A stretch of 50,292 bases of DNA from Alphaproteobacteria bacterium RIFCSPLOWO2_01_FULL_40_26. GTDB taxonomy: Bacteria > Pseudomonadota > Alphaproteobacteria > Rickettsiales > UBA1997. The translations under genes were made by a program, and so were the position numbers. This document shows positions 114 to 34,353 of this stretch, piece by piece (the first letter of the stretch is position 1; each line of letters starts with the position of its first letter). The notes beneath the pieces are model-generated. The model was not told the origin of the DNA. It saw only the letters and a list, made by a program, of their open reading frames with translations, and searched no databases. The stretch lies in contig MEMO01000023.1 in assembly GCA_001767955.1 (NCBI GenBank), positions 1 through 50,292 of the forward strand, given 5' to 3'.

Positions 114-2387
114 TTAAATTTTAATTGTTTTTAAGCGTAAAGAATTAGCGATTACTGAAACTGAGCTGAGCGACATTGCCGCCGCAGCGAAGATCGGACT
201 CAAATGAAACCCAAATAAACCAGCAGCTAAAGGAATGCCAAGTGCGTTGTAACCAAAAGCAAAAAACAGATTTTCTTTGATGTTACGCATAGTCTTTTTT
301 GAAAGCTTATGAGCTTTGACCAACTTGGCTAAATCACCTTGAAGTAAAACAATTCCAGCGCTTTCAATTGCCACATCAGTTCCATTGGCAACTGCAATTC
401 CAATATCAGCCATTGCCAAAGCTGGAGCATCATTAATGCCATCTCCGACCATTGCCACGATACTTCTTTTTGATTTGAATTCGGAAATAATTTTGCTTTT
501 ATCCTCCGGCAAAACTTCGGCAAAGATTTCGCTGATTCCCAATTTTTTTGCTACTTTCTCAGCGGTTTTTTTGTTATCGCCGGTGAGCATCACTATTCTC
601 AGGCCAAGATTCTGGAGTGTTTTAACCGCATCAAAACTTGATGGCTTAATGGCATCTTCAATTGCAAAAATGGCAGATAATTTTTGATCAACTGCCATAA
701 AAATCACTGTTGCGCCTTCTGCTTTTAACTCATCAGCTTGTGGTTTTAATTCTTCGCAACTCACTTTATGGGACTGTCGCAAATCCCCATTTCTTACCAT
801 TTTTAAACTCGACAAGCCATTGTAAATCAAGGGTTCAGATTTTTCAGAAAGTTGATTTGCGACGGGGCCTTTATTTTCTTCTAAAAATCTGGAATTGCCG
901 ATTAGGATTTTTTTATTTTCAACTTCACCACTGACACCTTTACCAATCGGAGTAATAAAATTTCTCACTTCTTGTAGGTTTATTTGACGCTCTTTAGCAG
1001 CATTTGTAATTGCTTTGGCCAGTGGATGTTCGCTTTGATTTTCTATACTTGCGGCAAGCGTTAAAACTTCTGTTTCAGAAAAGTTTTTAGCTGGAATTAT
1101 TTTAGTTAGATGCGGTTTTCCTTCTGTGAGCGTTCCAGTTTTATCAACCACGATCACATCAACTTTTTCCATACGCTCAAGGCTCTCAGCATTCTTTATC
1201 AGCACTCCATTTGATGCGCCCTTACCAAGTGCAACGATGATCGACATTGGCGTTGCAAGCCCAAGCGCACAAGGACAAGCGATAATCAGAACCGCAACCG
1301 CAGAAATTAATCCACGAATTGAATCACCAAAGAAAACCGTCCAGACAAAAAATGTCAGAATAGAAATTCCGATAACAAGCGGCACAAACCATGACGAAAT
1401 CTGATCAGCTAATTTTTGAATTTTGGTTTGACTACGTTTGGCTTCAGAAACCATTTTGATGATTTTACTTAGCATCGAATCTTCACCCATTTGCAAAACC
1501 TTCATCACGAAAGAACCATCTTGATTGATGGTTGCGCCAATAATCTTATCACCGATCTGCTTTTTTACTGGCATTGATTCACCGGTAATCATTGATTCAT
1601 CAATATTGCTGACACCTTCCACAATCTCACCATCAGCAGGAATTTTTTCACCAGGACGGACGTGCAATAGATCGCCAACCTGAATTTGCTCAATGTCAAT
1701 TTCTTCTTCACCATTTTTTGTGAGGCGGTGAGCAATTGTCGGAGTAAGTTTTATTAAAGCCTGAATCGCATTAGAAGTATTTTTGCGCGCCTTAATTTCG
1801 AGAATCTGACCAAGTAAAACCAAAACAATAATCACCGATGACGCTTCAAAATAAACAGCAATGATGCCTTCATGAGTAAAAAATTCTTGCGGAAAGGTAG
1901 TTGGAAATAAAACTGCAACAAAGCTGTAGACCCATGCTACACCTGTTCCAAGCGCAATTAAAGTGAACATGTTTGATGAACGATTCTTTAAAGAATCAGC
2001 AGCTTTTTTAAAGAAAGGAAAGCCACTCCAGAACACAACGAAACTCGATAAGACCAATTGAATCATCTGCGAAGTTTTGGCGGATAAAATTGTGCTGAAG
2101 TCAAAAAAATGCCCACCCATTTCCATGGCAAAAATCGGCAATGTTAGAATTAATGCGACCAAAAACCTCTTTTTAAAATCAGATAATTCTTCATCAAAAC
2201 CATCATCACTTGCCGTAACTTCAGCTTCCAAAGCCATGCCACATATCGGGCAATTTCCCGGCTTATCTTGCCTGATTTGCGGGTGCATCGGGCAAGTGTA
2301 AATCGCGTTCAGTTGTTTTGTATCTTGCAGCACAACGGGGGCGTTGGTGTGGCAACAATCTTTATGATGAGCGTGATTTTCGTGCAT
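114..2387 (-). CDS. copA: Cu(I)-translocating P1B-type ATPase, carrying a 35-aa MITE-derived insert
   Basis: YTCPMHP...CPICGM metal-binding domain, TGES, CPCALGLA, DKTGT, SEHPL, GDGINDAP, YN and MSLSS motifs; start set at MHENHAHH (2387). Confidence 0.95.
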   Translation of the reverse strand: MHENHAHHKDCCHTNAPVVLQDTKQLNAIYTCPMHPQIRQDKPGNCPICGMALEAEVTASDDGFDEELSDFKKRFLVALILTLPIFAMEMGGHFFDFSTILSAKTSQMIQLVLSSFVVFWSGFPFFKKAADSLKNRSSNMFTLIALGTGVAWVYSFVAVLFPTTFPQEFFTHEGIIAVYFEASSVIIVLVLLGQILEIKARKNTSNAIQALIKLTPTIAHRLTKNGEEEIDIEQIQVGDLLHVRPGEKIPADGEIVEGVSNIDESMITGESMPVKKQIGDKIIGATINQDGSFVMKVLQMGEDSMLSKIIKMVSEAKRSQTKIQKLADQISSWFVPLVIGISILTFFVWTVFFGDSIRGLISAVAVLIIACPCALGLATPMSIIVALGKGASNGVLIKNAESLERMEKVDVIVVDKTGTLTEGKPHLTKIIPAKNFSETEVLTLAASIENQSEHPLAKAITNAAKERQINLQEVRNFITPIGKGVSGEVENKKILIGNSRFLEENKGPVANQLSEKSEPLIYNGLSSLKMVRNGDLRQSHKVSCEELKPQADELKAEGATVIFMAVDQKLSAIFAIEDAIKPSSFDAVKTLQNLGLRIVMLTGDNKKTAEKVAKKLGISEIFAEVLPEDKSKIISEFKSKRSIVAMVGDGINDAPALAMADIGIAVANGTDVAIESAGIVLLQGDLAKLVKAHKLSKKTMRNIKENLFFAFGYNALGIPLAAGLFGFHLSPIFAAAAMSLSSVSVIANSLRLKTIKI
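770..869 (+). mobile_element. Family-A ~100-bp MITE, copy 1, in-frame within copA
   Basis: GGGACTGTCGCAAATC...GATTTGCGACGGGGCC flanked by TTTAT/TTTAT duplication (765-769, 870-874). Confidence 0.95.
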
Positions 2388-2667
2388 ATCAATATTATGA
2401 GTGATTCGGTTTGCAATAGATGTTGGCGGGGCGAATGACCCCAATTGCGAACTTTTCTCCGTTTTTGCGAAGCTAGTATTTTCAAGGGTTTGAAGACTAT
2501 TTCAAATGTACCAAAAAGTTCGCAGTATAAATCTTGATAGGCAATATACCCTTTTGCGAACCTTTAGTATTAGTATCTCCAATGCGGTCTAAAACCTTGC
2601 TACTATTGGTCATTTTAGATATACCTAATTTTCGAAGAAATTTCGAAAATTATAGCGTTTTCGAAAT

Positions 2668-2985
2668 TTACCTAATTTTTCTATAACACTCACTTCCGCC
2701 TTCTTCGGTACAACAGACATAAGACCATCCAGAATTATTTCCCAATTCTTTCGATGCAGCATAATCATATGCAATACTTCCGCACGAGGCTGCGCCTTTT
2801 GTTCTGCCTAAATTATAATCTTTGTCACCATCGGGAAATCGAAACCAAACATTTACATACACATCTTCATAACGTGACAATGGCAATTCGTCCGGTGGAC
2901 CAAAAACTTTTGCTGTTCCAAGACCGCCTCCGGTACACTTATAGAGAATAAAGACCGAGATTATTATTAAGATAATTTTGCCCAT
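2668..2985 (-). CDS. Small membrane-anchored or secreted Cys-containing hypothetical protein
   Basis: 105-aa ORF; hydrophobic N-terminus followed by C; several C-terminal cysteines; same strand and 31 bp downstream of abiEii. Confidence 0.6.
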   Translation of the reverse strand: MGKIILIIISVFILYKCTGGGLGTAKVFGPPDELPLSRYEDVYVNVWFRFPDGDKDYNLGRTKGAASCGSIAYDYAASKELGNNSGWSYVCCTEEGGSECYRKIR

Positions 2986-3016
2986 ATGATTTATAAAAAT
3001 GTTATTTCTTCAGATT

Positions 3017-6404: not shown

Positions 6405-6498
6405 TGGCGGACGGAGGGGGATTCGAACCCCCGATATAGCTTTTCAACCATATATCGGTTTAGCAAACCGACGCCTTCAGCCTCTCGGCCATCCGTCC
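6405..6498 (-). tRNA. tRNA-Ser(GCT)
   Basis: GGACGGATGGCCGAG...TTGCTAA anticodon loop, long variable arm, GGTTCGAATCC, encoded CCA. Confidence 0.97.
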
Positions 6499-6588: not shown

Positions 6589-6688
6589 GGGACTGTCGCA
6601 AATCCCCGTTTCTCACCATTTTTAAACTCGACGAGCCCTTGTAAATCAAGGGTTCAGATTTTTCAGAAAGTTGATTTGCGACATGGCC
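6589..6688 (+). mobile_element. Family-A MITE, copy 2, intergenic between tRNA-Ser and nrdA
   Basis: 100 bp, 2 substitutions from consensus, ATAAA/ATAAA duplication. Confidence 0.95.
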
Positions 6689-6851: not shown

Positions 6852-8723
6852 ATGGCTAAAAAAACAACGTCAAAAACATCAAAAATTTCTGCCAAAATAA
6901 TTTCTCTGAAGCTTCAATCGAAACAAAAATTTGCTGTCGATGTTGATGCAAAAAAAGATGAAAAATTGAGCAATTTTGGCAAGGCGGTTTTGAAGGATCG
7001 TTATCTGATGCCGGGAGAAAATTATCAGGATTTATTTGCTCGTGTTGCTGCTTACTACGCCGACGATTATGATCACGCCAATCGTCTTTACGGCTACATT
7101 GCCAATTTATGGTTCATGCCTGCAACTCCGATTTTAAGCAATGGTGGCACAAATCGCGGCTTACCGATTTCCTGTTTTCTTAACGAAGTTTCCGATTCTC
7201 TTGCCGGTATTGTTGGCTTGTGGAACGAGAATGTCTGGCTGGCATCAAAAGGCGGCGGTATTGGCAGCTATTGGGGCAATCTGCGCTCGATTGGCGAAAC
7301 TGTGCGTGGCAATGGCAAAACTTCCGGCATTATTCCCTTCATCAAGGTGATGGACTCACAAACTTTGGCAATATCGCAAGGTAGCTTGCGCCGCGGTTCG
7401 GCAGCAGTTTATCTACCGATTAATCATCCCGAAATTGAAGAATTTATTGATGTGAGAAGACCAACCGGTGGCGATCCAAACCGGCGCTCGCTTAATTTGC
7501 ATCACGGTGTTGTTATAACTGATGAATTTATGAGAGCGGTTGAGAAGGATGAAGAATTCGGCCTGCGCAGCCCTTTTAGCAATGAAGTGGTTGAAAATGT
7601 CAAGGCGCGCACTCTTTGGACTAAACTTTTAACCGCGCGTGTTGAAACCGGCGAGCCTTACATTCTCTTCATCGATGCTGTTAATCGCACAATTCCCGAT
7701 CATCACAAAAAGCTTGGGCTTCAGGTTAAAACTTCAAATTTGTGCAGCGAAATCACTTTGCCAACCGGCGAGGATCATCTGAAAAAAGACCGTACCGCCG
7801 TGTGTTGCCTGTCTTCATTGAATCTCGAATTTTATGATGAATGGAAAGATCACCCACAAATTCTTGAGGATGTGATGCGTTTTCTCGATAATGTGCTGCA
7901 GGATTTTATCAGCAAAGCGCCTGATTCCATGGCTAAAGCCAAATATTCGGCAATGCGTGAAAGAAGTGTCGGGCTTGGCGTCATGGGTTTTCATTCTTTT
8001 CTGCAAGGCAAAAATGTGCCGATGGAATCAGCAATGGCCAAAGTTTGGAATAAAAAGATTTTCCAGCATATCAAACATGGCGTGGATAAAGCTTCCAAAA
8101 TTTTGGCTAAAGAGCGCGGCGCTTGTCCGGATGCTGCTGAAGCTGGTGTTGAAGAAAGATTTTCCAATAAGATAGCGATTGCGCCAACTGCCTCGATTTC
8201 AATCATCGCCGGCAATTCTTCGCCCGGAATTGAGCCTTTCGCCGCTAATTCCTTCACCCAAAAAACTCTCACCGGATCTTTCAATGTGCGTAATAAAAAT
8301 CTGGTAAAATTGCTCGAATCGAAAGGTAAAAACACCGAAGATGTTTGGTCATCAATCACGATAAATGAAGGCTCGGTGCAACATCTCGATTTTCTTGATG
8401 AGCATGAAAAACTGGTTTATAAAACCGCACAGGAAATTGATCAAAGATGGATTATTGATTTAGCCGCTGAACGTCAGGAATACATTTGCCAAGCGCAAAG
8501 CCTGAATGTTTTTGTGCCCGGCAATGTTTCAAAAAAATATCTCCATGAAATTCATTTTCGTGCCTGGCAAAAAGGCCTGAAGAGTTTGTATTACTGCCGC
8601 TCCACCTCAATTCAGCGTGCTGACAAAGTTTCCAATAAAGGTGAAAAACACGAGATGGAATTTTCAAACCAGAATCAAAAAGGGGTGGAAAGGGAGTTTG
8701 AAGAGTGCTTGGCCTGTCAGTAG
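6852..8723 (+). CDS. nrdA: Class I ribonucleoside-diphosphate reductase alpha subunit (short, no ATP cone)
   Basis: PATPILSN, SCFL, SNLCSEI, APTAS, KSLYYCR, C-terminal CLAC. Confidence 0.95.
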   Translation: MAKKTTSKTSKISAKIISLKLQSKQKFAVDVDAKKDEKLSNFGKAVLKDRYLMPGENYQDLFARVAAYYADDYDHANRLYGYIANLWFMPATPILSNGGTNRGLPISCFLNEVSDSLAGIVGLWNENVWLASKGGGIGSYWGNLRSIGETVRGNGKTSGIIPFIKVMDSQTLAISQGSLRRGSAAVYLPINHPEIEEFIDVRRPTGGDPNRRSLNLHHGVVITDEFMRAVEKDEEFGLRSPFSNEVVENVKARTLWTKLLTARVETGEPYILFIDAVNRTIPDHHKKLGLQVKTSNLCSEITLPTGEDHLKKDRTAVCCLSSLNLEFYDEWKDHPQILEDVMRFLDNVLQDFISKAPDSMAKAKYSAMRERSVGLGVMGFHSFLQGKNVPMESAMAKVWNKKIFQHIKHGVDKASKILAKERGACPDAAEAGVEERFSNKIAIAPTASISIIAGNSSPGIEPFAANSFTQKTLTGSFNVRNKNLVKLLESKGKNTEDVWSSITINEGSVQHLDFLDEHEKLVYKTAQEIDQRWIIDLAAERQEYICQAQSLNVFVPGNVSKKYLHEIHFRAWQKGLKSLYYCRSTSIQRADKVSNKGEKHEMEFSNQNQKGVEREFEECLACQ

Positions 8724-8780
8724 AGATAAGCTCAATAGGTGGTTGTTATGCAATTCTGTATACAAGAAATTAATCATATC

Positions 8781-8861
8781 TGTTCACGATTATCCTGAAA
8801 TAATCGTGAACAACCAGTAAATTTTGGTTGATTTTCACGGTTATTTACCAAATAACGTGAA
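8781..8861. promoter_or_regulatory. Two related palindromes upstream of fic (candidate operators; the first may also terminate nrdA)
   Basis: TGTTCACGATTAT-N6-ATAATCGTGAACA (8781-8812) and TTCACGGTTATTT-ACC-AAATAACGTGAA (8834-8861). Confidence 0.55.
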
Positions 8862-10405: not shown

Positions 10406-12616
10406 AAATTGTGTGCCGTGTTGCAGAAAATCAAAATTATCAATTTTGATTTTTTCTTTTTTAATACAGTCTGGAAGTGCGTATTTTCTAGTCATATTCA
10501 CAATCATATCAAAATCATTTTTGCAAATTTCTGCAATTTTATTGCGCTTAAGAAGCACCAGAATTTTTTTATTTTTTTCGATTATGCATTTTTCTTTTTC
10601 GCAGAAATTTATGGTTTTGAAATAATTTTCACCAAAGTGGTTCATCCAATGTTGACGCTGTTTTGAAGGCCTTAATTTTTTTGAAAATCTCAAACCATTT
10701 TGAGACTGTCGCAAATCCCCATTTCTTACCATTTTTAAACTCGACGAGCCCTTGTAAATCAAGGGTTCAGATTTTTCAGAAAGTTGATTTGCGACATGGC
10801 CATTTCCATCATTAATGGCAAAAAATTTCTGATCTTTTTCAAAAATAATATCCGGTTTTTTGATGAAAAAAATTGTCAAAAATGAAGCGCAAAAAATTGC
10901 AATTCCGGCTAAATGCAATTTTTTTTCAGATTTTTTTTCAGATTTTTTTTCAGATTTTTTTTCAGCAAGGCAAAAAAGCAAAAATCCAAAAGTTGCAATT
11001 ACAAGGCCATGGCTTGGTAGTTGTGGTGTAGTAAGGTTGAAATTGCTGATCTCGGCAATTTTTTTAAGCAGCAAAATTCCCTCATTCATCAAAAGCAGCA
11101 CATATTTTTCCAGACCGAAAGGCATGAAAAAAAACGAAGAAAATCCAAGCGGCATGACAAAAAAGCTGGCTAGGGGAATAGCGAAAACATTGCTTACGAA
11201 ACCAGATAGAGCAAGGCTTTGGAAGCTATGCATCAAAAAGGGTAAAGTGGCGATTTGGATTGCGATGGATAAAAGTGCAATATCAGAAAAATAGCGTAAT
11301 CCGCGAGCTTGGCGAAGCTTGCGATGATAAAAAACTCCAAGCGTGAGAATTGCCGCAAAAGATAGCTGAAAACTAATGCTAAAAACCGCCAGCGGATTGT
11401 ACAAAATCAACAAAAATGCCGCTGTCATTATCGCCCGCTTGGCGTTGATTTTTTCATCAAGAAAAAGCGCTAATAAAACCAAAACAACCATTAAAAATGC
11501 GCGCTGTGCTGGCAATGGCGATCCGGCAATTTTAAGATAAAAATAAGTAGCAAAAATTGCGATAACGGAGGCGATCTTTTTAAGATCAAAATTCAATGCC
11601 AGATATTCACTGCGCGATAGCAGAAAGCGTGTTGCGATAAAAAAAATTGCGCCGGCCAAAGATAGGTGAAAACCGGAAATTGACAGAAGATGCGCCAACC
11701 CGGAATTGCGGATTTTTGCCAGAGTTTCTTTGGAAATTTGTGATTGATCACCAATCAGCAAAGCCGTGGCAATTGCGGCTTCATCGTCTTTTAAACTTGT
11801 TGAAATTCTGGCGCGTATTTTTTCGCGCAAAGCTAAAAACCATTGATCAAAATTGGAGATTTCTCCTTGCCGTAAAATTTTTGCTTCGCCGATGGCAAAG
11901 CCGTAAGCGCCGATTTTTTTCATTTTGGCATCGCGTGCAAAATCGAAATCTTCGGGAAAATCTTTTGGCTTTGGCGGTTGTAACAATGCGCGCAGAGCGA
12001 TTTCATCATTGATTGCAATCGGCGCAGAATTTTTAACCAGATTTATTGAAATTTTTTGCGGTGGATTCGGAAATTTTCCATCATCATTCCAATCAACATT
12101 CTGATAGTTTTTGGCGTAATCGAGAAATTTACGATCAACTTCCTGATAATTTTCCAAATTGACAAAATCTTTGATGATTTTTTTATCAGAGATTTTTTTA
12201 GGTTTTTTCTTTTTTACGATTTTATTGTCGAATTTTGTCCGATATAAAACAGGTTCTGCAATCACTAAATTCAAGCCTTTAAGATGGTTTACCGGATTGT
12301 AAAATTTTTTTATTTCTACGACTTTTCCTGTGATGTCGGCATAAATTTTTCCGCTGATTTCAGTGTGATTGAGAAAAAATTTTTCATAAAAAATCCCGTA
12401 AAAACTGCCGAGTAAAAAGCACAAACATGCAGCACAAATCAGATTGCGAAACAGGATTGCGGCACAACAAAAAAGCGCGATAAAAATCGGCAGTTTTGAT
12501 AAAAAATTTTGCGGATAGGAGAAATAAAAAACTGCGCCGAAACCAAAGAAGACGGGAATCCACAGCCAAAAATTTTTTCTTTCTTGCTCTAAAATTCTGG
12601 TGATTAATAACCCCAC
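10289..12616 (-). CDS. comEC: ComEC/Rec2 DNA-uptake channel with MITE insert and SEKK repeat
   Basis: SGLAHLLSISGFH, AQRAFLM, SFQLSF, NVFAIPL motifs. Confidence 0.9.
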   Translation of the reverse strand: MGLLITRILEQERKNFWLWIPVFFGFGAVFYFSYPQNFLSKLPIFIALFCCAAILFRNLICAACLCFLLGSFYGIFYEKFFLNHTEISGKIYADITGKVVEIKKFYNPVNHLKGLNLVIAEPVLYRTKFDNKIVKKKKPKKISDKKIIKDFVNLENYQEVDRKFLDYAKNYQNVDWNDDGKFPNPPQKISINLVKNSAPIAINDEIALRALLQPPKPKDFPEDFDFARDAKMKKIGAYGFAIGEAKILRQGEISNFDQWFLALREKIRARISTSLKDDEAAIATALLIGDQSQISKETLAKIRNSGLAHLLSISGFHLSLAGAIFFIATRFLLSRSEYLALNFDLKKIASVIAIFATYFYLKIAGSPLPAQRAFLMVVLVLLALFLDEKINAKRAIMTAAFLLILYNPLAVFSISFQLSFAAILTLGVFYHRKLRQARGLRYFSDIALLSIAIQIATLPFLMHSFQSLALSGFVSNVFAIPLASFFVMPLGFSSFFFMPFGLEKYVLLLMNEGILLLKKIAEISNFNLTTPQLPSHGLVIATFGFLLFCLAEKKSEKKSEKKSEKKLHLAGIAIFCASFLTIFFIKKPDIIFEKDQKFFAINDGNGHVANQLSEKSEPLIYKGSSSLKMVRNGDLRQSQNGLRFSKKLRPSKQRQHWMNHFGENYFKTINFCEKEKCIIEKNKKILVLLKRNKIAEICKNDFDMIVNMTRKYALPDCIKKEKIKIDNFDFLQHGTQFLFLEDKKFQTKKIHPGRETKRDEEGDFGDDAKTIDGDF
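10702..10801 (+). mobile_element. Family-A MITE, copy 3, in-frame within comEC
   Basis: 100 bp, 1 substitution; flanks ATTTT/ATTTC; encodes GHVANQLSEKSEPLIYKGSSSLKMVRNGDLRQS. Confidence 0.95.
10919..10966. repeat. 12-bp tandem repeat x4 (TTTTTTTTCAGA) encoding AEKK-SEKK-SEKK-SEKK in ComEC
   Basis: Read directly; each unit holds a T8/A8 run; last unit ends in C. Confidence 0.95.
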
Positions 12617-20675: not shown

Positions 20676-20681
20676 ATCAAC

Positions 20682-20995: not shown

Positions 20996-21245
20996 AAAGG
21001 CTGAACAGGGGCAGTTTATTGAGCGGTTTAATGAGGATTTACAAATTTTCGTTCAAGGGAATTTGCGGTATCTAAGAAAAGAGTTTAACAAGGTGAGAAT
21101 CATAAAAAATTTAGTGTCTATTTTTAATCAAAATCCAGAAAATTTCTTTGATTTAAGAATTTTTAATTGAGAAAATTAATCTGAGTTTTAGAGAAAAAAT
21201 TCTTCGTAAAACCAGTTGAAATTTCACCAAAAAAATCGCCTAAAA

Positions 21246-21713: not shown

Positions 21714-24700
21714 ATGCCAGCTAAAATCGAAATCAAATCACGACAAACAGATTACAATAATTTTCTTCCTAGCGATCCTAATCACATGTATATTGTTTAT
21801 ACAAATGAAGCAGGGGAGAGTAGGGTTTTGAGAGGTAATCCAAAAAATGAAACGTTGTTTGGGGCTTTGTTTGATGACATTTTGATTGTTGATACGAACT
21901 ATGATGAAACCTCTCCAGATTGGGATTCAAGTGGCACACACCCCCACCAACCAATCTTCACCGGCACCGACTCAGAAATGTATTCCCTAATCTCCCTTGC
22001 CATCACCGAAATGAACCGCATCAACTCTCAAGGCTATGATTACAATCTCCCGATTTTCGAAACACTTCTTCCAAACACTCCATGGGCTGAATTAAATAAT
22101 CAAAATAGCAACTCATCTGCGATGGCTTTAGCTAAAGTCATGGGATTTGAAAATCAGATATTGCGATTCATTTATATCAACAATCTCAATGTCCCAGGAT
22201 ATGATTCACCAATTGAACATTCTGTTTTTGAAAAATCAGTTGATTCGCTTTTTAGTGCCATAAGTTCCTCTAGCCAATCCATTAGTAATTTTTTGAATGT
22301 AGCAGCAAACCTTCTCGGAATAAGCATTATTAATGAGAAGGATTTTGCTCTCGAACTGCTAACAAAAGAATTTCTTTCAGCCAATCCGCAGTTTAATGGC
22401 TTAAAGCTAAAACTTAACCTTGTTGAATCATCCCACCTCCAATCCTTCCTCCAAACCTACCACCTCAACTCCAACCTCTCCGATTTTGCAGGAATTATTC
22501 CAAGCGTTATAATCAATGACGGCAACGGAGGAAACTTCAACCTCACAGCCCTTCCAGATTTCTCCAACCTCATCGGCGAAGAACAAGATTCAGTCTGGAA
22601 TAACTTCACCAACCAGTTTCTCGAATCAGCTTTATCTTCCTTCAACTACGACATTGACCAATTCACCAATTTCCTGAACCAGAACAGAATCTCATTCTTC
22701 CAATTTAACTCCGATCTAACCTCATCTCTTGGAGCTGATGGAGATGATGAAGGCATATTCTCCCCCTCCTTCGATTCCTACTTCAACCAGTCAATCCTAA
22801 AAAATCTCAATCTCGACAAAAACCTCTTCAAACTAAAAACCACAATCACTGACGGTGAAGCTAAAACCAGCGGAGAGATTGGATATGAAGAAGTAAGTTA
22901 TAATGAACCGGACTTTACGCAGAGACAAACCACAACAACTCAAACCATTGCAATTCCTGCAGATCAGATTGGTAATGCAATCTACTATCTCGAATCACAA
23001 GATTATAAAAACATCGAAGAATTCGAAAACGACCAGCTAAATCTACAGCAGGAATATGACAGAATCACCAGATGGATGGTGGATGATTTAAAGATTGAAC
23101 AGGGGCAGTTTATTGAGCGGTTTAATGAGGATTTACAAAATTTTATTCAAGAAAACTCGCAGGATTGGCAGGAGAAATTTTCGGATTTTTCGCATAATTA
23201 TGATTTGGAATGGAAGGATTTAACGAGAAATGCTATCTCCAATTGGCACGCCGATGTTGAAGCTTTGCTCGATGAATATGAAGGTATCACCTACTACAAT
23301 CCTGAAACTTATCAAATTTCAGACATCACCGGCACTTTAAAATCAGGGCTTGGTGGAGATTGGGATTTTGATCCATGGAATGAGGATGGTGAAATTCTCG
23401 CTCATGGTTATTGGGAGATAGCACAGGATTTTGAAATTGTTGGGGAGTTTGAGGATTATTGGCGGTGGTTTGATTCCAATTCTGACGGCTTTATTTCGCA
23501 GGAAGAATTTTATGAGGATTGGAATAAATTTATCACCTATCTTGAGGATAATGGCTATTATGAAAGGCTGGAAGCTTTTGATTACAGCGAACTAAGCTAT
23601 AATGGTCCGGAATATTTTGAACAATTCGATGATAATGGTGATGGCTTGATTAATGAATATGAATTTGATTATGGCGGTGAGGATGATTACCGCGAGTGGG
23701 CATTGTGGGATTCTTCTGATGGTTATTGGGCTGATTATAATCCTTACGATGAAATCAATTGGCAGGAAGCTTTAATCATGGCCGATTGGTCGCCATATGA
23801 ATCAATCGAGGAGGCGTTTGATGTTGTTCATAGCGTGAATTTTAGCGAACGCTGGGTTTATGTTGATGAAGATTATGTCGCCTCTGATTATTGGGACATT
23901 GAAGCCGAAGTGAGTTTTGAAACTACTAGTCCCGATTATTCCGAACTTCATTTCAGCAATTTCATTTCCGCTAATTCCTGGGAACTTGAAATCAGCACAG
24001 AATGGAAGCCAAGTGATATCGCATTCGATGTTAATTTTGATGCCAATTTCAATTTTGATGTTGAAGCAATCAACCGCGCTTTCGAACAATTTGCTTATGA
24101 TTTCCTCTACCAACCGCTCGTTGATTATCGCGATTACGACACTGCAAAATTTGAAAATGCCAGCTATAGCCTTGTTGAATCGGACAATGCGGTAATTTCT
24201 GGAGGAGTTGCAAATGAAATCATCATTTCAAAAGCAATATCACTACAAGTCGATGCCGGCGATGGTTTAGATATCGTCAATGGCAGTGAAGGCGCTGACG
24301 AAATTGATGGCGGGAATGGCGATGACATTCTGATTGGTAATGGCGGCAACGATGTTTTGCGTGGTGGTGAGGGTAATGATCTGTTTGTTTTCGATAGCTC
24401 TAATGATGGTGCAAGCCAAGTCATTGATTCCGATGGTGCCATCATCATCGATGAAAAAAGATTGGCAGGAATTGCCATTCAAGATGGCAATTCAGATCGT
24501 TTCATGCTTGGCGCAAAAACATTGCAGATGATTGAAAATGACTTGCTGGTTTCTTACGGAACTAACAACTCAATTCTGATCAAAAATTTTGAGGATAAAA
24601 AATTTGGTATCACTCTTAATCGCAATCCGGAAAGCAATCTAGAACATGTTGAAATCGATGAAGATAATGCAGTGATATTTGATGTTTTGGCCAGCGTTTC

Positions 24701-26078
24701 CGATGTGGACAATGATCAACTAAATCTTGCCGCAATCAATCAGCCGGAAAATGGCAAAGCAGAAATTATTGACGGCAAAATCAAATATACTCCAAACTCC
24801 AATTGGCATGGCTCTGATAGTTTGCGTTATCTCATTTCCGATGGTCGTGGCGGATTTTTGGAAAAAACTTTGAGCATCGCAGTAAATTCAGTAAATGATG
24901 CTTTGGCTATCGATTATTCAATAGGCAATCTCTCGGCTAAAACCACTCAACAATTTATCTTCAAACTCCCGGCTGATTTAATTTCTGACATTGACAGCGA
25001 TGCCCAAATACAAATCAAAAAAGCCGATGGTTCAGATTTGCCATCATGGTTAAGTTTTAATTCGGAAACCAAAGAACTCCGCGGCACTCCACCATCATCA
25101 GCCTATGGTTTACAAAATTTTATCCTCATTGTTTCTGATGCTGAATATGAAGTCAGGAAAAATTTTGGTTTGGTGGTGGATTCCGATTTAACTCTAAAAT
25201 CAGGAGCAAATCTAATTACCGCCAATGAAAATAATGATCCCATCTCTTCTTCAGAGGGAAACAAAGCCGATCTCGTTATTGGCGATGAGCGTGATAATGT
25301 CCTCGAATTTAAATCTGACGGCAATTGGTCTAAGCCAAGTTACTGGGCCTGGAATCCATATACCAACGATTGGGTTAGAATCTTTACAAAAATTAGAAGC
25401 TTTGATGCCTTTGATGGTAAAGGTGGTTATGATATCCTTAATCTTACTGATGGCCATGATACAATCTTTCTTGATGATCAATATTCACAAAATGGCAGTC
25501 AAAGTGGAGCAAGATTAGCTAATATCGAAGAAATCAACGGCTCCGACGGTGATGATATCATTGATCTTTCTTCCCGAAAATACACCTACAACGACATCAC
25601 CCTTAATGGCAATGATGGCAACGATGTTCTCTGGTCAAACGACGGCAACGACATCATCAATGGCGGGGCAGGAAATGATCACATAGTCGGCGGCAGAGGA
25701 GATGATATTCTCAATGGCGATGAAGGAAACGACATCATCAAAGGCCATGACGGCAATGACACAATCGATGGCGGAAAAGATAACGATAAAATCACCGGCG
25801 GATTAGGCGCCGATATTTTAAGCGGAGGCATTGGCAATGATGTCTTTATCTATGAAAACATCGCAGATTCAACCAGAGACAACACCGACCTCATCCTCGA
25901 TTTCATCCAAAACCAGGACAAAATCGATCTCTCCCAAATCGCAGAAATAAACTCCCTTGACGATCTCAACATCATTTTCCAAAACAACCAAACCCTAATT
26001 GAAGCCCAAGACCACGATTTCCAAATCAAACTCAATCAACAGATACAGCTTACGGAGCAGGATTTTTTGTTTAGTTGA
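21714..26078 (+). CDS. Large RTX-type calcium-binding protein, type I secretion substrate
   Basis: GGxGxDxLx nonapeptides in two clusters, cadherin/Ig-like domains (DVDND.L, VNSVND, LPSWLSF), C-terminal D.I.DF...DKIDLS...DFLF signal, two EF-hand-like loops. Confidence 0.92.
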   Translation: MPAKIEIKSRQTDYNNFLPSDPNHMYIVYTNEAGESRVLRGNPKNETLFGALFDDILIVDTNYDETSPDWDSSGTHPHQPIFTGTDSEMYSLISLAITEMNRINSQGYDYNLPIFETLLPNTPWAELNNQNSNSSAMALAKVMGFENQILRFIYINNLNVPGYDSPIEHSVFEKSVDSLFSAISSSSQSISNFLNVAANLLGISIINEKDFALELLTKEFLSANPQFNGLKLKLNLVESSHLQSFLQTYHLNSNLSDFAGIIPSVIINDGNGGNFNLTALPDFSNLIGEEQDSVWNNFTNQFLESALSSFNYDIDQFTNFLNQNRISFFQFNSDLTSSLGADGDDEGIFSPSFDSYFNQSILKNLNLDKNLFKLKTTITDGEAKTSGEIGYEEVSYNEPDFTQRQTTTTQTIAIPADQIGNAIYYLESQDYKNIEEFENDQLNLQQEYDRITRWMVDDLKIEQGQFIERFNEDLQNFIQENSQDWQEKFSDFSHNYDLEWKDLTRNAISNWHADVEALLDEYEGITYYNPETYQISDITGTLKSGLGGDWDFDPWNEDGEILAHGYWEIAQDFEIVGEFEDYWRWFDSNSDGFISQEEFYEDWNKFITYLEDNGYYERLEAFDYSELSYNGPEYFEQFDDNGDGLINEYEFDYGGEDDYREWALWDSSDGYWADYNPYDEINWQEALIMADWSPYESIEEAFDVVHSVNFSERWVYVDEDYVASDYWDIEAEVSFETTSPDYSELHFSNFISANSWELEISTEWKPSDIAFDVNFDANFNFDVEAINRAFEQFAYDFLYQPLVDYRDYDTAKFENASYSLVESDNAVISGGVANEIIISKAISLQVDAGDGLDIVNGSEGADEIDGGNGDDILIGNGGNDVLRGGEGNDLFVFDSSNDGASQVIDSDGAIIIDEKRLAGIAIQDGNSDRFMLGAKTLQMIENDLLVSYGTNNSILIKNFEDKKFGITLNRNPESNLEHVEIDEDNAVIFDVLASVSDVDNDQLNLAAINQPENGKAEIIDGKIKYTPNSNWHGSDSLRYLISDGRGGFLEKTLSIAVNSVNDALAIDYSIGNLSAKTTQQFIFKLPADLISDIDSDAQIQIKKADGSDLPSWLSFNSETKELRGTPPSSAYGLQNFILIVSDAEYEVRKNFGLVVDSDLTLKSGANLITANENNDPISSSEGNKADLVIGDERDNVLEFKSDGNWSKPSYWAWNPYTNDWVRIFTKIRSFDAFDGKGGYDILNLTDGHDTIFLDDQYSQNGSQSGARLANIEEINGSDGDDIIDLSSRKYTYNDITLNGNDGNDVLWSNDGNDIINGGAGNDHIVGGRGDDILNGDEGNDIIKGHDGNDTIDGGKDNDKITGGLGADILSGGIGNDVFIYENIADSTRDNTDLILDFIQNQDKIDLSQIAEINSLDDLNIIFQNNQTLIEAQDHDFQIKLNQQIQLTEQDFLFS

Positions 26079-26097
26079 GTTTAATTGCACCTTCTAA

Positions 26098-26218
26098 GAG
26101 CCTGTCTTAAAACCCACCGCGCCTCGCTTTTCCATAAATTTTGGCTCGTTTTTTGGCAAAATTTTGCCGCTGTATCCGGCATAATCGGGTTGAAACAGGA
26201 TGATTTTAAGATGGGCTC
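26098..26218. mobile_element. Degenerate, internally deleted family-B MITE
   Basis: GAGCCTGTCTTAAAA...TTTTAAGATGGGCTC ends; internal AAATTTTGGCTCGTTTTT and AAAATTTTGCCGCTGTATC match family B. Confidence 0.75.
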
Positions 26219-26644: not shown

Positions 26645-28057
26645 ATGAGTAAGGGAATATTGATCAAATTTGTCATCGTTTTAGTTGTAGCCGCTTTGTC
26701 TTATAGCGTGTTTTGGTTTTTTAAAATGGGGCAGGTTGAAAAGCAGATAAACAAATTTATCAGCGAAAATGGTTCCAATATTTCCGCCGGAGAAATTTCA
26801 GTTTCCGGCTTTCCCTTGATGCAAAAAGTGGTGATTAAAGATTTGAAGTTCACAATCCCCAACGCTTTGTTAGACAAACGTCAAGTGATTATAAAAAATC
26901 TTGAAGCAAAAGCGGGAATTTTTTCTTCTGATTTTGCTGTTGCTTTGGTTGAACAAGTTTCAGTTCAGGATATTGATGGCAGCGTTGCTAATGTTGAATT
27001 TAGCAAAGAGCCGGAAATCATGATCTCGTTTAGTGATGGCAGAATTTCCAAATTTTCTTATAACGATTTTGGATACAGAATTTTTGATGCGGAAAAAAAT
27101 GTGATTTATGCGGCTGCAAATTCCAATGTTGTTATTGATTCAGCAGTTTTGGAAGATGAAAAAATTTCAACTAAAATCAGCGTTGTTGCCAGAGACATTG
27201 AAGGTTTTGGTGTGATAGATGCTTACAAAAATGCTTTAGAAAAAAAGATTATTGATGGTTTGAAAACCGGTGAAATTGCAATCGGTAATGCTACCACTGC
27301 CTTGATTCCACCTCAAATCCAGAATGAGCAGGTTCAAAATAGTTCCTCTGTTGCGACACCAAAAGTTGAAACTCCGGCGCAAGCTGTACAAGCACAACAG
27401 ACAGATGGTCAGCAAAATATTACATCTCAAAATCAAGCTCAAAATCAGGAAACGCCAGCTGCAACAACAGCTGAAAATGCTGAAGTTCCGGCAACCATCG
27501 CCGACAATTCCATCGTAAAGAGCAATTTTACTCTTGATGTTGAATATGTGCTGACGCCAAATAAATCAGAACAACAGGTTCCTTTTGATCCGACACAGAT
27601 TCAGGAAATTCCATTGCAATATGCCAAGCTGGTCAAGATCAATAATTTGGATTTCTCAAATCCGCTTTACAAGATAGTGATCAACGGTGAGATGAATGTT
27701 CTTGCCGATGATAATCTTCCTTCCGGCGGTCTTTCCATAAAGGTGGAAAAAATCGATAATCTTGTCAGTCAACTCACAACCGGTTTCACACAAATGGCTG
27801 AAAAAGATAAGACGGTAGTGAGTGCCATTACCGATGTTCAATCATCCGATCTTGCTTCGGCCGGAAATATTTCCGATGATTCTTATCAGGTTTTCTTATC
27901 CAGAATTTCTGCCAATCTTTCTGTTATTGCCAAAGAATTGGCTGCCAAAAATCCGGTAAGCAAGGAAGACGTTGCGCAGTTTGATGTTAGAAGAGAAAAG
28001 AATCTCGATTTTCTGATCAACGAAACCACCATTCGCGAAGTTCTTGGAAAGTTTTAG
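26645..28057 (+). CDS. Hypothetical membrane-anchored periplasmic protein (DUF2125-like N-terminus)
   Basis: N-terminal TM, Y..FW, SGFP motif, Q/A/T-rich linker. Confidence 0.6.
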   Translation: MSKGILIKFVIVLVVAALSYSVFWFFKMGQVEKQINKFISENGSNISAGEISVSGFPLMQKVVIKDLKFTIPNALLDKRQVIIKNLEAKAGIFSSDFAVALVEQVSVQDIDGSVANVEFSKEPEIMISFSDGRISKFSYNDFGYRIFDAEKNVIYAAANSNVVIDSAVLEDEKISTKISVVARDIEGFGVIDAYKNALEKKIIDGLKTGEIAIGNATTALIPPQIQNEQVQNSSSVATPKVETPAQAVQAQQTDGQQNITSQNQAQNQETPAATTAENAEVPATIADNSIVKSNFTLDVEYVLTPNKSEQQVPFDPTQIQEIPLQYAKLVKINNLDFSNPLYKIVINGEMNVLADDNLPSGGLSIKVEKIDNLVSQLTTGFTQMAEKDKTVVSAITDVQSSDLASAGNISDDSYQVFLSRISANLSVIAKELAAKNPVSKEDVAQFDVRREKNLDFLINETTIREVLGKF

Positions 28058-29021
28058 ATCTGTATTAGCGTGGGCCGAGAGAATTCTCGGCAATATCGAT
28101 AATAACAGGCTTGATGCGTTGATTTTGCTTTCCCACATCACTTCTTTTTCCAAAGAAAAGATAATTTTTAATCCTGATTTTAAGTTAAATTACGACCAAA
28201 AAGAAAAGTTTTTTGAGCTTGTTGAGCGCAGAGTAAAGCATGAGCCGATTTCTCATCTTATTGGCAAAAGAGAATTTTTTGGTGCAGATTTTTCAGTCAG
28301 TAAAGATGTTCTCGATCCAAGACCGGATTCAGAAATTTTGATCGAGGCGATTTTGAAAAAATTTCCAGACCGCAATCAAAAATTGAAAATTGTTGAACTC
28401 GGAGTTGGTTCGGGATGTTTAATTATTACCTTGCTTACAGCCTTTAAATCAGCCTGTGGAACCGGAATTGATATCTCCAATGCTGCACTCGAAATTTGCA
28501 AAAAAAACGCCGCAAAATTTGGAATCACAAAACGTTTAACTTTACTAAAGTCTAATCTTTTCAACCAAATTCCAAACAACGAAGCACGAAGCACGAAGCA
28601 CGAAGCACGAAAATTTGACCTCATCATCTCAAACCCCCCTTACATCCCAAGCGATGACATCAAAAATTTACAGCCGGAAATTGTCTTATTTGAACCAAGA
28701 ATTGCTCTTGATGGCGGAAAGGATGGTTTGGATTTTTATCACAAAATTGCAGCAAAAGCAGAAAAATTTTTAAACCAGAATGGGACTGTCGCAAATCCCC
28801 AGTTCCTGCCATTTTTAAACGCGATGAGCCCTTGTAAATCAAGGGTTCAGACTTTGCAGAAAGTTGATTTGCTACATGGCCAGAATGGAAAAATTTTTCT
28901 TGAGATTGGTTATGGCCAAAAAGAAAAAGTGATTGAAATTTTTACTAAAAAGGGATTTTTGTTTATCGAAGCAAGCCTTGATTTGGCTGGCATTACGCGT
29001 GTTTTAGAATTTTCATGTTAA
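28044..29021 (+). CDS. prmC: Release-factor glutamine methyltransferase with two repeat-derived inserts
   Basis: EPISHLIG.REF, VLDPRPDSE, ELGVGSG, SNPPYI, EP..ALDGG.DGL, EIGYGQ, DLAG..R. Confidence 0.95.
   Translation: MESFRSVLAWAERILGNIDNNRLDALILLSHITSFSKEKIIFNPDFKLNYDQKEKFFELVERRVKHEPISHLIGKREFFGADFSVSKDVLDPRPDSEILIEAILKKFPDRNQKLKIVELGVGSGCLIITLLTAFKSACGTGIDISNAALEICKKNAAKFGITKRLTLLKSNLFNQIPNNEARSTKHEARKFDLIISNPPYIPSDDIKNLQPEIVLFEPRIALDGGKDGLDFYHKIAAKAEKFLNQNGTVANPQFLPFLNAMSPCKSRVQTLQKVDLLHGQNGKIFLEIGYGQKEKVIEIFTKKGFLFIEASLDLAGITRVLEFSC
28580..28611. repeat. Heptamer tandem repeat (CGAAGCA)x4.5 inside prmC
   Basis: Read directly; translates as EARSTKHEARK. Confidence 0.95.
28782..28881 (+). 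mobile_element. Family-A MITE, copy 4, in-frame within prmC, read on the opposite element strand
   Basis: 100 bp, 8 substitutions, no indels; AGAAT/AGAAT duplication; QN-[GTVANPQFLPFLNAMSPCKSRVQTLQKVDLLHG]-QN. Confidence 0.95.
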
Positions 29022-30925: not shown

Positions 30926-30950
30926 GGGCAATTGATCAAAAAATTCCTGC

Positions 30951-33564: not shown

Positions 33565-34201
33565 TTTTTGAGTTAGGAATTTGATAACCGCCATAAAATG
33601 CAAAATCTTGCGGGAAGGCGTAACTAAAGCCTGTAGCTAATATTCCAAGCGCATGATTTCCGGAATACCAATCGGCAATCAAACTGAAATCATCAGTAAT
33701 TTTTTGTTCAAATCCGCCGATAAAACAGGTGACGCTTTCGCCAAAAATTTGTTTGGTGCCATTGCTGATTCCGGCAGTTAAGCGCGTGTTGCTTTGTGGA
33801 ATGATAATGCTGCCGCTACTGTAAATCCAGTGTCCTATGCCCTGTCCCTGCAATGAAATCGGTATCATTAATCCAAAAATTATTTTTGGCTGATAAGAAT
33901 TTTTTGTGGCAAGAGGAAAAACATTTTTTGCACCAATGCCAAGCGAAACATTTTGTGAAGCCGGCGTGCTTAAATTGAATTGTGTGATGTTGAGTTCAGT
34001 ATCATAGCCAATTCCGTGTGCAAAATAGTTGGTTGCAGCCCAAAACTGACCTGGATCTTTGGCGCGAAATTGCGATTCATGCTGCAAAAAAATTTTATTT
34101 TTTGTGAGTACATCAACAGATGGAACATTGAAAATGGTTTGTTGAGCGTTGGCTTGGAAGCGAATAAAAATGACAAAGAAGAAGAAAATAAATTTTTTCA
34201 T
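33518..34201 (-). CDS. Secreted / outer-membrane beta-rich hypothetical protein
   Basis: Signal peptide MKKF...ANA, amphipathic beta strands, C-terminal Phe. Confidence 0.65.
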   Translation of the reverse strand: MKKFIFFFFVIFIRFQANAQQTIFNVPSVDVLTKNKIFLQHESQFRAKDPGQFWAATNYFAHGIGYDTELNITQFNLSTPASQNVSLGIGAKNVFPLATKNSYQPKIIFGLMIPISLQGQGIGHWIYSSGSIIIPQSNTRLTAGISNGTKQIFGESVTCFIGGFEQKITDDFSLIADWYSGNHALGILATGFSYAFPQDFAFYGGYQIPNSKNVGRNSFVIEIAKTF

Positions 34202-34253
34202 GTTGCATTGAAATAGCCAATCTCCGCCTCTTTGAGGCTTTGTCATACATATC

Positions 34254-34353
34254 GGGACTGTCGCAAATCCCCATTTCTTACCATTTTTAAACTCGACGAG
34301 CCCTTGTAAATCAAGGGTTAAGATTTTTCAGAAAGTTGATTTGCGACATGGCC
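34254..34353 (+). mobile_element. Family-A MITE, copy 5, overlapping the exonuclease 3' end
   Basis: 100 bp, 1 substitution; flanks ATATC/ATAAT (imperfect); supplies PCRKSTF-stop. Confidence 0.93.

Follow-up and report, generated by a model that had tools for sequence, protein, structure and literature searches.

The window, that is, the whole stretch of 50,292 nucleotides analysed here, was found to carry five full copies of a 100-bp repeat and a truncated fragment of its right end (Table 1). All five copies are free of indels and share one orientation; counted from the sequences, copies 1 to 5 have 4, 2, 1, 8 and 1 substitutions relative to the genome-wide consensus. Three of them lie in frame in long open reading frames (ORFs), those of a P-type ATPase, ComEC and PrmC. 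Copy 5 provides the final residues and the stop codon of a PolB-exonuclease-like gene. The five orthologue matches of this gene run no further than query residues 255–271 of 274, and three of them contain a stop. In local alignment the fragment agreed with the right end of the element at 27 of 29 positions, with one gap.

Table 1 Copies of the 100-bp element in the window and the genes in or beside which they lie.
Feature	Positions	Strand	Remarks
Heavy-metal P-type ATPase, 776 aa	114–2444	-	Pfam E1-E2_ATPase, Hydrolase, HMBD; copy 1 inside HAD/hydrolase region
MITE copy 1	770–869	+	In frame on minus strand of P-type ATPase gene; perfect duplication TTTAT at 765–769 and 870–874
tRNA gene	6408–6498	-	Neighbour of copy 2
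MITE copy 2	6589–6688	+	Intergenic; perfect duplication ATAAA
Ribonucleotide reductase gene	6852–8723		Neighbour of copy 2
ComEC-like competence protein, 775 aa	10289–12616	-	Pfam Competence, 189 bits
MITE copy 3	10702–10801	+	In frame on minus strand inside ComEC; imperfect duplication ATTTT/ATTTC
Truncated right-end fragment of the element	20319–20346	-	Directly after stop codon of YceI-like gene (19232–20317)
PrmC/HemK-type release-factor methyltransferase, 325 aa with insert	28044–29021	+	Pfam PrmC_N, MTS
MITE copy 4	28782–28881	+	In frame on plus strand inside PrmC; perfect duplication AGAAT
MITE copy 5	34254–34353	+	3' end of PolB-exonuclease-like gene; imperfect duplication ATATC/ATAAT
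PolB-exonuclease-like gene	34328–35152	-	ORF extends 26 nt into copy 5 and stops there

The element is bounded by terminal inverted repeats of 16 bp, which are imperfect in the studied genome and share the core GTCGCAAATC. A central hairpin appears in the predicted fold (-33 kcal/mol, z -3.7; none of 200 shuffles was as stable), and a stable hairpin is predicted for the RNA of both orientations. When the consensus was translated in all six frames, each strand proved to have exactly one open frame, in phase 0 and starting from the terminal G; the longest open frames have 33 codons, and no transposase gene lies inside. That one sequence is open on two strands is not as striking as it may seem, since an open frame on each strand also occurs in 12% of random 100-mers with the same composition. 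The net gain per insertion is 105 bp, or 35 codons. An earlier note on this DNA had described the five copies and the fragment, their perfect and imperfect flanking duplications, the C before every left flank, the inverted repeats, the hairpin, the single open frame on each strand, the three in-frame copies and the gain of 35 codons, and each of these points was confirmed when the sequence was analysed anew.

The studied genome, that of an uncultured bacterium, measures 1.44 Mb and has a G+C content of 40%. Its RpoB is closest to PDB entry 7ye1, an entry cited, in the parts of the papers available, by work on Caulobacter crescentus.

A whole-genome search with nhmmer returned 50 matches to the element, 47 of them near full length and 88–100% identical to the consensus, so that a chance origin of the repeat is excluded; metagenome contigs of the same organism hold further copies. 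Copies occur in both orientations and also between genes. Of the 49 that could be placed, 25 are in frame in long ORFs, defined as frames open for 30 codons or more to either side of the copy, where gene calls are ORF heuristics and not the output of a gene finder; two of the 25 are weak cases, one in a transposase remnant and the other an interrupted copy. Only one of the 49 breaks a gene in its middle, and the broken gene is an IS1634 transposase. In three more the element replaces the C-terminal tail, and the remaining copies are intergenic or at gene ends, several directly after the native stop codon. Open-frame intervals account for 23 of 48 for the element and for 26 of 318 for all other repeats of the genome. 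The in-frame hosts include NuoG, MurC, Ddl, TrmD, PrmC, RibF, HemH, ParB, ComEC and the P-type ATPase.

Of 47 copies, 37 have a perfect flanking duplication of 5 bp and 44 have a match at the sixth base; in five, the left flank is followed by the final two bases of the element. The duplication is 5 or possibly 6 bp long. A C precedes the left flank in 41 of the 47, as in all five copies of the window, which gives the target consensus C(41/47)-A-T-W-A-T.

The insert was missing from the orthologues of all six host genes tested. For PrmC no counterpart was found in any of 30 congeners, where not every row had both flanking pieces; all 12 aligned congeners showed an exact gap of 35 columns, and the open frame measured 282–313 aa in 26 of the 30. 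The single clear orthologue of the P-type ATPase (genome G024) is without residues 526–558 and is 741 aa long, compared with 776 aa. Residues 607–637, approximately, of ComEC are without counterpart in G001 and G011, and the flanking matches abut in the DNA of both. The 35 residues are likewise absent from NuoG and HemH in sister species (10 of 10 orthologues each), and TrmD has an empty site in eight of nine, the ninth carrying an unrelated insert. In the predicted model of PrmC the insert forms a loop (residues 247–279, pLDDT <50) between a helix and a strand at pLDDT 88–95.

Small size, terminal inverted repeats, a duplication whose length is fixed and whose sequence varies, dispersed copies and empty sites are thus all present, as in a MITE; an autonomous element with the same ends was found in sister species and not in the studied genome. 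The suggestion of the earlier note that the repeat is a MITE family tolerated in coding sequence, resembling the Rickettsia palindromic elements (RPEs), was therefore sustained by the repeats, the duplications, the multicopy status and the empty sites, and by the 25 of 49 copies in frame. One outcome that would have spoken against it, a majority of frame-breaking copies in coding sequences, was not observed, with one break against 25 copies in frame.

No cognate transposase was found in the window, as the earlier note had remarked, nor anywhere in the assembly, which is 97.5% complete, or among the additional metagenome contigs, and therefore the agent of what seems to be a recent burst is missing. 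A search for a transposase bounded by the same ends was successful in the sister species G011 and G133. Contig C64 of G011 (locus L160, 911–2245) holds a 1335-bp element with these ends, flanked by the duplication AGTAT and containing an intact ORF of 338 aa, and contig C22 of G133 holds a broken copy. The ends of this longer element align to those of the MITE across 16 nt; a clean duplication was seen in only one of the three copies examined. The 338-aa transposase exceeded the Pfam cut-offs for DUF772 (60.8 bits) and DDE_Tnp_1 (45.5 bits) and stayed below those of NCBIfam for IS1182 (145.5 versus 270) and IS5_4 (124.3 versus 140). This 1.3-kb, IS5/IS1182-like insertion sequence is likely to be the parent of the MITE. 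A 5-bp duplication is, to our knowledge, not the usual figure for IS5 subgroups. Among 126 genomes of the family, 18 contain the end motif GGGRCTGTYGCAAATC and none contains the reversed control pattern, and the DUF772 plus DDE type of transposase was present in 35 of the 125 other genomes. Diverged relatives of the 100-bp element were also detected in two other genera; at 25–34% divergence, and spanning at least three genera, they keep the length and, in most, both open frames, and in G133 and G098 their ends form the perfect inverted repeat GGGGCTGTTGCAAATC.

The element could instead be moved by the IS1634-family transposases of the studied genome itself. No other DDE_Tnp_1 transposases were detected in the assembly, where IS1634 has three copies, of which one retains an intact ORF of 511 aa. 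IS1634 duplications are given as 5–6 bp in the available part of one source (PMC6352166), and an IS1634-derived MITE with a 6-bp duplication is described for Methanosarcina barkeri in the available part of another (PMC3852290). However, the ends of the three IS1634 copies bear no significant similarity to those of the MITE, seven of eight comparisons giving p ≥0.16 and the eighth being an internal 12-mer, and one of these copies is itself broken by the MITE, whereas the insertion sequence of the sister species has matching ends and a 5-bp duplication. Mobilisation by IS1634 is therefore considered very unlikely, and derivation of the MITE from IS1634 was rejected since no IS1634-matching ends were found on it. 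Tn3-derived miniature elements (TIMEs) carry Tn3-type inverted repeats of about 38 bp. This class was also discarded: the genome has no DDE_Tnp_Tn3 match, the inverted repeats of the element measure 16 bp and its putative parent is IS5/IS1182-like, so that the AT-rich 5-bp duplication is the sole feature that fits.

The fate of insertions was assessed with a target-site model, in which 14.7% of the sites are non-coding, 37.5% are coding and stop-free, and 47.6% are coding and stop-bearing. To find at most four stop-bearing copies among 49 has a probability of 3e-9 under this model. Because the copies from which it was derived are survivors, it should favour in-frame sites, which should render the depletion test conservative; it nevertheless remains a model. 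Since it predicts 48% stop-bearing insertions and yet few are seen, such insertions into genes have evidently been purged, as far as the model holds. It also predicts the orientation bias itself, 68:32 being expected and 18:7 observed. In quantitative terms, the model shows that a filter of purifying selection, without any targeting, would be enough to give the always-in-frame pattern.

The same pattern might be read as decay, the hosts being degenerating genes of a shrinking genome in which inserts are tolerated under relaxed selection and many of the proteins work poorly or no longer at all. The genome is indeed small, repeats are plentiful in it, with 366 intervals that make up 4% of its DNA, and the ratio of in-frame to non-coding copies is about what a neutral model predicts. 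Against this, the frames of NuoG, MurC, Ddl, TrmD, PrmC, RibF, HemH and ParB, whose genes are usually essential or single-copy, are intact on both sides of the insert, the near-absence of stop-bearing insertions shows selection on host genes to be active, and the insert of PrmC falls in a loop while the core of the fold is confidently predicted; decay on this scale is given only a slight chance. That the 105 nt are excised from the transcript or the protein as an intron or intein would be, leaving the proteins at their original length, is a possibility raised in the earlier note and hardly credible in spite of the stable RNA hairpin: self-splicing introns far exceed 100 nt and inteins far exceed 35 residues, copies are found in both orientations and in intergenic DNA, the scarcity of stop-bearing copies within genes is what translation and not removal predicts, and Rfam at gathering thresholds matched three tRNAs and no other family in the whole window, so that a self-splicing intron or other described RNA family was rejected.

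It thus appears very probable that the repeat is a MITE of an IS5/IS1182-like parent, mobilised in trans and filtered for reading frame by selection. It would be a non-autonomous 100-bp transposon that takes its 16-bp ends from a group of insertion sequences, about 1.3 kb long, resident in this bacterial family; these encode a transposase of roughly 338 aa (DUF772 plus DDE) and make target duplications of 5 bp. A transposase of the type seen in the sister species would have acted in trans, cutting the MITE at its inverted repeats, and the MITE would then have been inserted at staggered cuts in AT-rich C-ATWAT sites, adding 100 + 5 bp each time. The cognate gene was presumably lost later from the studied genome, or failed to assemble. 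The genome is gene-dense, and most of its target sites are intragenic. Where the element enters between two codons, whichever way round, the host protein would gain 35 residues and would not be truncated, because the phase starting from the terminal G is stop-free on each strand; insertions in the other two phases would bring stops and were evidently removed by selection. Copies in phase, between genes or at stop codons survived. Some fifty copies are the outcome, and half of these lie in intact genes, of which many serve core housekeeping functions. The 35-residue insert would be translated, and the host proteins would keep their function.

A more tentative reading is that selection has acted on the lineage of the element itself and made it harmless in genes, as an adaptation to gene-dense reduced genomes, which offer hardly any landing place other than coding sequence. 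The 100-bp length is kept in all relatives found and the stop-free reading of both strands in most, and for this reason such an adaptation is possible, if somewhat doubtful; a burst in one species would then have carried one and the same 35-residue stretch into some two dozen proteins, many of which are core enzymes.

Most records of selfish DNA in frame in housekeeping genes have so far come from Rickettsia. The element offers an independent and cleaner case: its ends are sharp, its target sites are duplicated and follow a motif that can be measured, sister species have a candidate for the parent transposase, and in many relatives the sites are empty. The family has an identifiable type of transposase, represented by the likely parent in sister species; were the adaptation real as well, the family would be a tractable model of how RPE-like elements move and how proteins absorb inserts. 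The presence of the same 35 residues, in two alternative versions, in about 25 different proteins is a natural experiment on where folds tolerate insertions. In the annotation of metagenome-assembled genomes, inserts of this kind give inflated protein lengths and cause domain matches to be split.

No description of this element was found in the literature searched. Like MITEs derived from IS5 and IS1182, it appears as a non-autonomous, multicopy deletion derivative that keeps only the inverted-repeat ends, with the difference that the transposase of its putative parent is below the NCBIfam cut-offs for IS1182 and IS5_4. It also differs from RPEs in its clear terminal inverted repeats, its 5-bp target duplications and its identifiable parent insertion sequence; we know of no transposase for RPEs. 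The IS1634-derived MITEs of Methanosarcina are similar in being small and multicopy with a 6-bp duplication, but are archaeal and 247–249 bp long according to the available part of the source (PMC3852290), and the IS1634 ends of the studied genome are unlike those of the element. Open frames that overlap or are fused with annotated genes are described, in the parts of the sources available (PMC10969869, PMC5896051), for ERIC and other enterobacterial elements, for QMITE1 of Coxiella burnetii and for MITEb and MITEe of Anabaena; QMITE1 measures 300–400 bp with direct repeats of 2–3 nt, compared with 100 bp and 5-bp duplications here. Among these systems, and within the same parts of the sources, half of a family lying in frame in core genes is described for RPEs alone. 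RPEs (Ogata et al. 2000, 2002) measure about 150 bp and form ten families according to the available part of a review (PMC10969869), compared with the 100 bp of the element; as there described, both are short palindromic repeats that, in a small genome, are found in frame in unrelated housekeeping genes and add a conserved peptide to them, with roughly half of the copies in ORFs and an insert that appears compatible with the fold of the protein. By this description RPEs are the closest precedent of the element.

The 100-bp element of the window was found to represent a new MITE family that has multiplied in a single species and is tolerated within genes as the Rickettsia palindromic elements (RPEs) are. 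The earlier note had read it, from the sequence alone, as a coding-tolerated MITE family behaving in the manner of RPEs, and this reading was borne out by copies across the genome, target duplications, empty sites in orthologues and reading frames. The five full copies lie where they had been placed, each 100 bp long, aligned without gaps as claimed, and with 1 to 8 differences from the genome-wide consensus; the flanking duplications assigned to them are correct, the truncated end agrees with the right end of the element at 27 of 29 positions, and translation of the consensus returns the single open frame per strand, starting at the terminal G, that the note had described. The proposed hairpin likewise holds, either strand folding as RNA into a long structure closed by the inverted repeats, with CCCTTG/CAAGGG as central stem (-33 kcal/mol, z -3.7; 0 of 200 shuffles folded as well).

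Three of the five window copies are in frame, as had been stated, within long ORFs assigned by Pfam to a heavy-metal P-type ATPase, ComEC and the release-factor methyltransferase PrmC. The fourth is intergenic, with a tRNA gene on one side and a ribonucleotide reductase gene on the other, and the last lies at the stop codon of a PolB-exonuclease-like gene, the end of which is now 26 nt inside the element; orthologue matches to the protein stop at query residues 255–271 of 274. Other repeats were seen in the same region. A second palindromic family, of approximately 166–169 bp and starting AGAGCCTGT, has many copies genome-wide, a few of them in open frames, and one is nested within a 100-bp element. 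Two copies of a 73-bp repeat are 99% identical; the repeat recurs where many of the assembly's contigs end, beside a GGACCCCGCAACAAGTGCGGGG hairpin, and is probably part of a longer, assembly-breaking repeat. Around the start of a 1454-aa ORF, three collinear blocks of 73–88 bp recur at a distance of about 2 kb with 86–92% identity, apparently as paralogous duplicates.

Positions of the elements, repeats and genes discussed. G000 is the source genome, G011 a sister species and G015 a further relative; C denotes contigs and L extracted loci.
Feature	Sequence	Positions
Full 100-bp copies	window	770-869; 6589-6688; 10702-10801; 28782-28881; 34254-34353
Truncated right end	window	20319-20346
Second palindromic family	window	20512-20677; 36783-36948; 26097-26183
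Second palindromic family	G000:C31	59083-59241
73-bp repeat	window	40-112; 17147-17219
Collinear blocks	window	20414-21071; 22415-23165
1454-aa ORF	window	21714-26078
Copy read in second frame	G000:C12	14354
DNA polymerase III alpha, C-terminal part	G000:C9	22353-23519
Tandem 21-bp repeats	G000:C12	13286-13369; 13895-13999
Tandem 21-bp repeats	G000:C16	76468-76553
Tandem 21-bp repeats	G000:C29	16415-16495
Paralogous ORFs (~295 aa)	G000:C31	37467-38351; 38881-39765
Paralogous ORFs (~295 aa)	G000:C26	28215-29099
Paralogous ORFs (~295 aa)	G000:C27	12023-12922
Paralogous ORFs (~295 aa)	G000:C34	19942-20799
IS1634-family element	G000:C1	13761-15296
IS1634-family element	G000:C28	~7400-8850
IS1634-family element, broken by the MITE	G000:C26	~42150-43756
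MITE within the C26 IS1634 element	G000:C26	42606-42705
DUF772 remnant	G000:C17	41695-42408
DUF772 remnant	G000:C31	~21919-22400
DUF772 remnant	metagenome L071	2073-3170
Paralogous empty site (DUF772 remnants)	G000:C1	15308-15400
Probable parent insertion sequence	G011, L160	911-2245
Contig starts/ends with shared repeat	G015	e.g. L129-L137; C25:2-585

The source assembly (1.44 Mb, 38 contigs, 97.5% complete, about 40% G+C), of which the window is one entire contig, gave 50 matches to a profile made from the five window copies. The closest solved structure to the RpoB of this genome is entry 7ye1, cited in papers on Caulobacter crescentus, which makes the host a probable alphaproteobacterium. 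Near full length was reached by 47 of the matches, with 88–100% identity to their consensus; the other three comprise one degenerate copy, one at a contig end and one interrupted by a different, nested repeat. Among the 47, a perfect 5-bp duplication flanks 37, the target consensus is C(41/47)-A-T-W-A-T, and 44 have, just before the duplication, the same base with which the element ends. As the left flank is followed by the last two bases of the element in five copies, the staggered cut may span 5 to 7 bp; every copy adds 105 bp net.

For 25 of the 49 placeable copies the reading frame extends 30 or more codons without a stop in each direction, and 31 of the 49 lie wholly within a start-to-stop ORF. 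Phase 0, which starts at the terminal G, is used by 24 of the 25 in-frame copies, the exception being read in a second frame opened by a T-to-C change at position 35, a subfamily feature. Outside the window the host genes encode FolC-like and MurC-like Mur ligases, a biotin/lipoate ligase, RibF, a class-I amidotransferase, an AddB-like nuclease, Fic, an alpha/beta hydrolase, the C-terminal part of DnaE, Ddl, RlpA, ParB, NuoG, a Methyltransf_28 protein, an iron alcohol dehydrogenase, TrmD, an ABC-F ATPase, a formyltransferase and ferrochelatase. A single copy disrupts a gene part-way through, that of an IS1634 transposase; three replace a C-terminal tail, and the remaining copies are intergenic or at gene ends, several of them directly after a native stop codon, the AT-rich target often including such a codon. 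Open frames hold 23 of 48 intervals of the family versus 26 of 318 of all other repeats in the genome. The DnaE copy resides in a separate 388-aa ORF (HHH_6 and OB fold). Open frames of this genome also contain tandem 21-bp repeats (GCAACAAGTGCGGGGTGACAA), which would encode 7-residue repeats, and a set of five paralogous ORFs, about 295 aa each, shares 75–85% identity in DNA.

The frame behaviour of the copies is accounted for by a simple selective explanation. With a position weight matrix derived from 47 sites, scoring of the genome returned 60,233 candidate sites, 14.7% of them non-coding, 37.5% in a stop-free phase and 47.6% in a stop-bearing phase of ORFs of at least 150 aa. Under this target model the probability of four or fewer stop-bearing copies among 49 is 3e-9, and that of one or none 8e-13, which indicates that stop-bearing insertions were purged; the matrix was built from surviving sites, so the depletion test should be conservative. 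In-phase copies persist at a roughly neutral ratio to non-coding ones. Selection on the peptide might have been read from the orientation of the in-frame copies, of which 18 are read opposite to and 7 along the element (p 0.04 against 1:1), but the target motif alone gives 68:32 (p 0.83); in the opposite-strand orientation the target reads NAT-WAT-G and fits the codon phase. The pattern needs neither gene targeting nor selection on the peptide.

Orthologues without the insert, the empty sites sought by the earlier note, were recovered for PrmC, the ATPase, ComEC, NuoG, ferrochelatase and, in eight of nine congeners, TrmD. In all 30 congeners the PrmC match breaks off near residue 248 and, in those with a second, downstream match, which not every one of the 30 had, resumes near residue 280, the two pieces abutting in the DNA; alignment with 12 congeners leaves a gap of exactly 35 columns. 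The one clear ATPase orthologue (G024, 76% identity) is devoid of residues 526–558 and has 741 aa versus 776 aa, ComEC of G001 and G011 is without residues from about 607 to 637, and the inserts of NuoG and ferrochelatase are absent in 10 of 10 congeners each. In the ninth TrmD (G003, locus L116) the linker concerned bears an unrelated palindromic insert. Unrelated in-frame insertions occupy variable loops of PrmC in three other relatives too (L036 of G016, L037 of G014 and L038 of G044); some of the sister-species loop insertions look like translated palindromic repeats, and in-frame repeat insertion may be common in the genus. An AlphaFold model of PrmC, computed from a 10-sequence alignment (mean pLDDT 77.8), places the insert at segment 247–279 with pLDDT below 50, as expected from an alignment that has no homologues for it, between a helix (230–242) and a strand (283–287) with pLDDT of 88–95, and shows it in a predicted connection, not in a core element. 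That the peptide is an ancient protein segment was rejected because of the 88–100% DNA identity of the copies, their occurrence in both orientations and in intergenic positions, the duplications and the orthologues without insert.

The element was also present in independent data. A metagenome scan with the 19-mer left end gave 37 loci, 36 of which contain the element, the remaining one being a chance match of 70% G+C. This genome accounts for 33 at 99.3–100% identity, including L062, apparently two copies joined in a chimera; L063 and L071 lack any long match to it but contain its repeat families, and together add at least five element copies outside the bin. L063, 12.9 kb from the same organism, has four copies beside Fic, DsbH-like, MbnB/TglH-type and HlyD genes. 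The window region occurs in nine listed runs, all of them DNA and recorded as groundwater or soil metagenomes. In four of these, assembled contigs reproduce the junctions of flank and element at 770, 6589 and 10702 with zero differing letters. No contig of these four runs skips an element; contigs drop rare variants, and insertion polymorphism may still exist. Among 185,579 species genomes, a collection that does not include this genome, end cores spaced 58–78 bp apart gave 15 single, chance-like matches, none of them element-like.

A mobilising transposase was sought in the source genome. Outside the known copies the 10-mer end cores occur four or five times per strand, and none led to a parent element; self-BLAST of the genome disclosed no long repeat with MITE ends, Pfam family searches no rve, Tn3, DDE_5, DDE_3 or ISL3 transposase, and the 37 metagenome loci no parent. 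The genome contains three IS1634-family elements with mutual identity of about 80%, one of them with an intact 511-aa ORF (309.7 bits against NF033559); a table in PMC6352166 gives duplications of 5–6 bp for IS1634, but the IS1634 ends are unlike those of the MITE, which dismisses it as parent, and one of the three is itself interrupted by the MITE in a stop-bearing frame. Truncated IS5_1-type transposase remnants, with DUF772 only and a paralogous empty site, were dismissed too: they are of another IS5 type, share only 25% identity with the parent described below, and are merely MITE targets, two of them carrying a copy.

A transposase bounded by the same ends, which the earlier note had proposed looking for, was found in sister species. 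DNA search of 126 family genomes disclosed relatives of the element, 100 bp long and about 75% identical, in G133 (same genus) and in G098 and G107 (two other genera), 2–3 copies each, with perfect ends (GGGGCTGTTGCAAATC) and 5-bp duplications. The end motif GGGRCTGTYGCAAATC is present in 18 of the 126 genomes and a reversed control pattern in none. In G133 it flanks a 1.4-kb element with a broken DUF772 and DDE gene, and in G011 a 1335-bp element with AGTAT on either side and an intact 338-aa ORF with DUF772 and DDE_Tnp_1, nearest in NCBIfam to IS1182 and IS5_4, below both cut-offs. The first 16 nt at both ends of this insertion sequence align to both MITE ends, and the MITE right end resembles one of them for about 15 nt further, with a one-base shift (partly by eye). 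This insertion sequence is the probable parent. Transposases of its type were found in 35 of 125 other family genomes and are absent from this genome, where tblastn with the G011 protein gave a weak, DUF772-level match only (E 6.6e-4). On this basis the element is read as a MITE of this IS5/IS1182-like family, amplified in the one species, where the transposase may since have been lost, may never have been assembled or may have been supplied from elsewhere.

Further derivatives sharing the ends are 124 bp, 141 bp and about 620 bp long. The last terminates at least 25 contigs of G015, carries a decayed transposase remnant and is apparently the form present in high copy in that genome, where one stretch of about 145 bp, ending with the shared inverted repeat, is the stopping point of at least 25 contig ends. 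A 945-aa ORF adjoining an element end in G015 had no Pfam match.

Coding compatibility may itself have evolved. Openness on both strands is not remarkable for one sequence, as each strand has an open frame in 12% of random 100-mers of the same composition, both being in phase 0 in 1%. All seven copies in relatives are exactly 100 bp, six have both phase-0 frames open, and two lie in frame in ORFs; among the four distinct variants, both frames have stayed open in three after 25–34 substitutions, for which simulation gave 4–8% each. Because these variants are related to each other, this is suggestive, not proof, of an evolved trait of the element lineage.

No description of the element was found in open-access literature text. 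The review PMC10969869 counts intragenic ERIC elements, QMITE1 of Coxiella and Anabaena MITEs among the MITEs that bear ORFs, and PMC5896051 gives QMITE1 as 300–400 bp with 2–3-nt repeats. The closest precedent is the RPEs, described in PMC10969869 as ten families of about 150 bp with nearly half of the copies in ORFs as in-frame fusions. Compared by description, the element behaves like an RPE, and it offers a tractable second example of such tolerance within genes.
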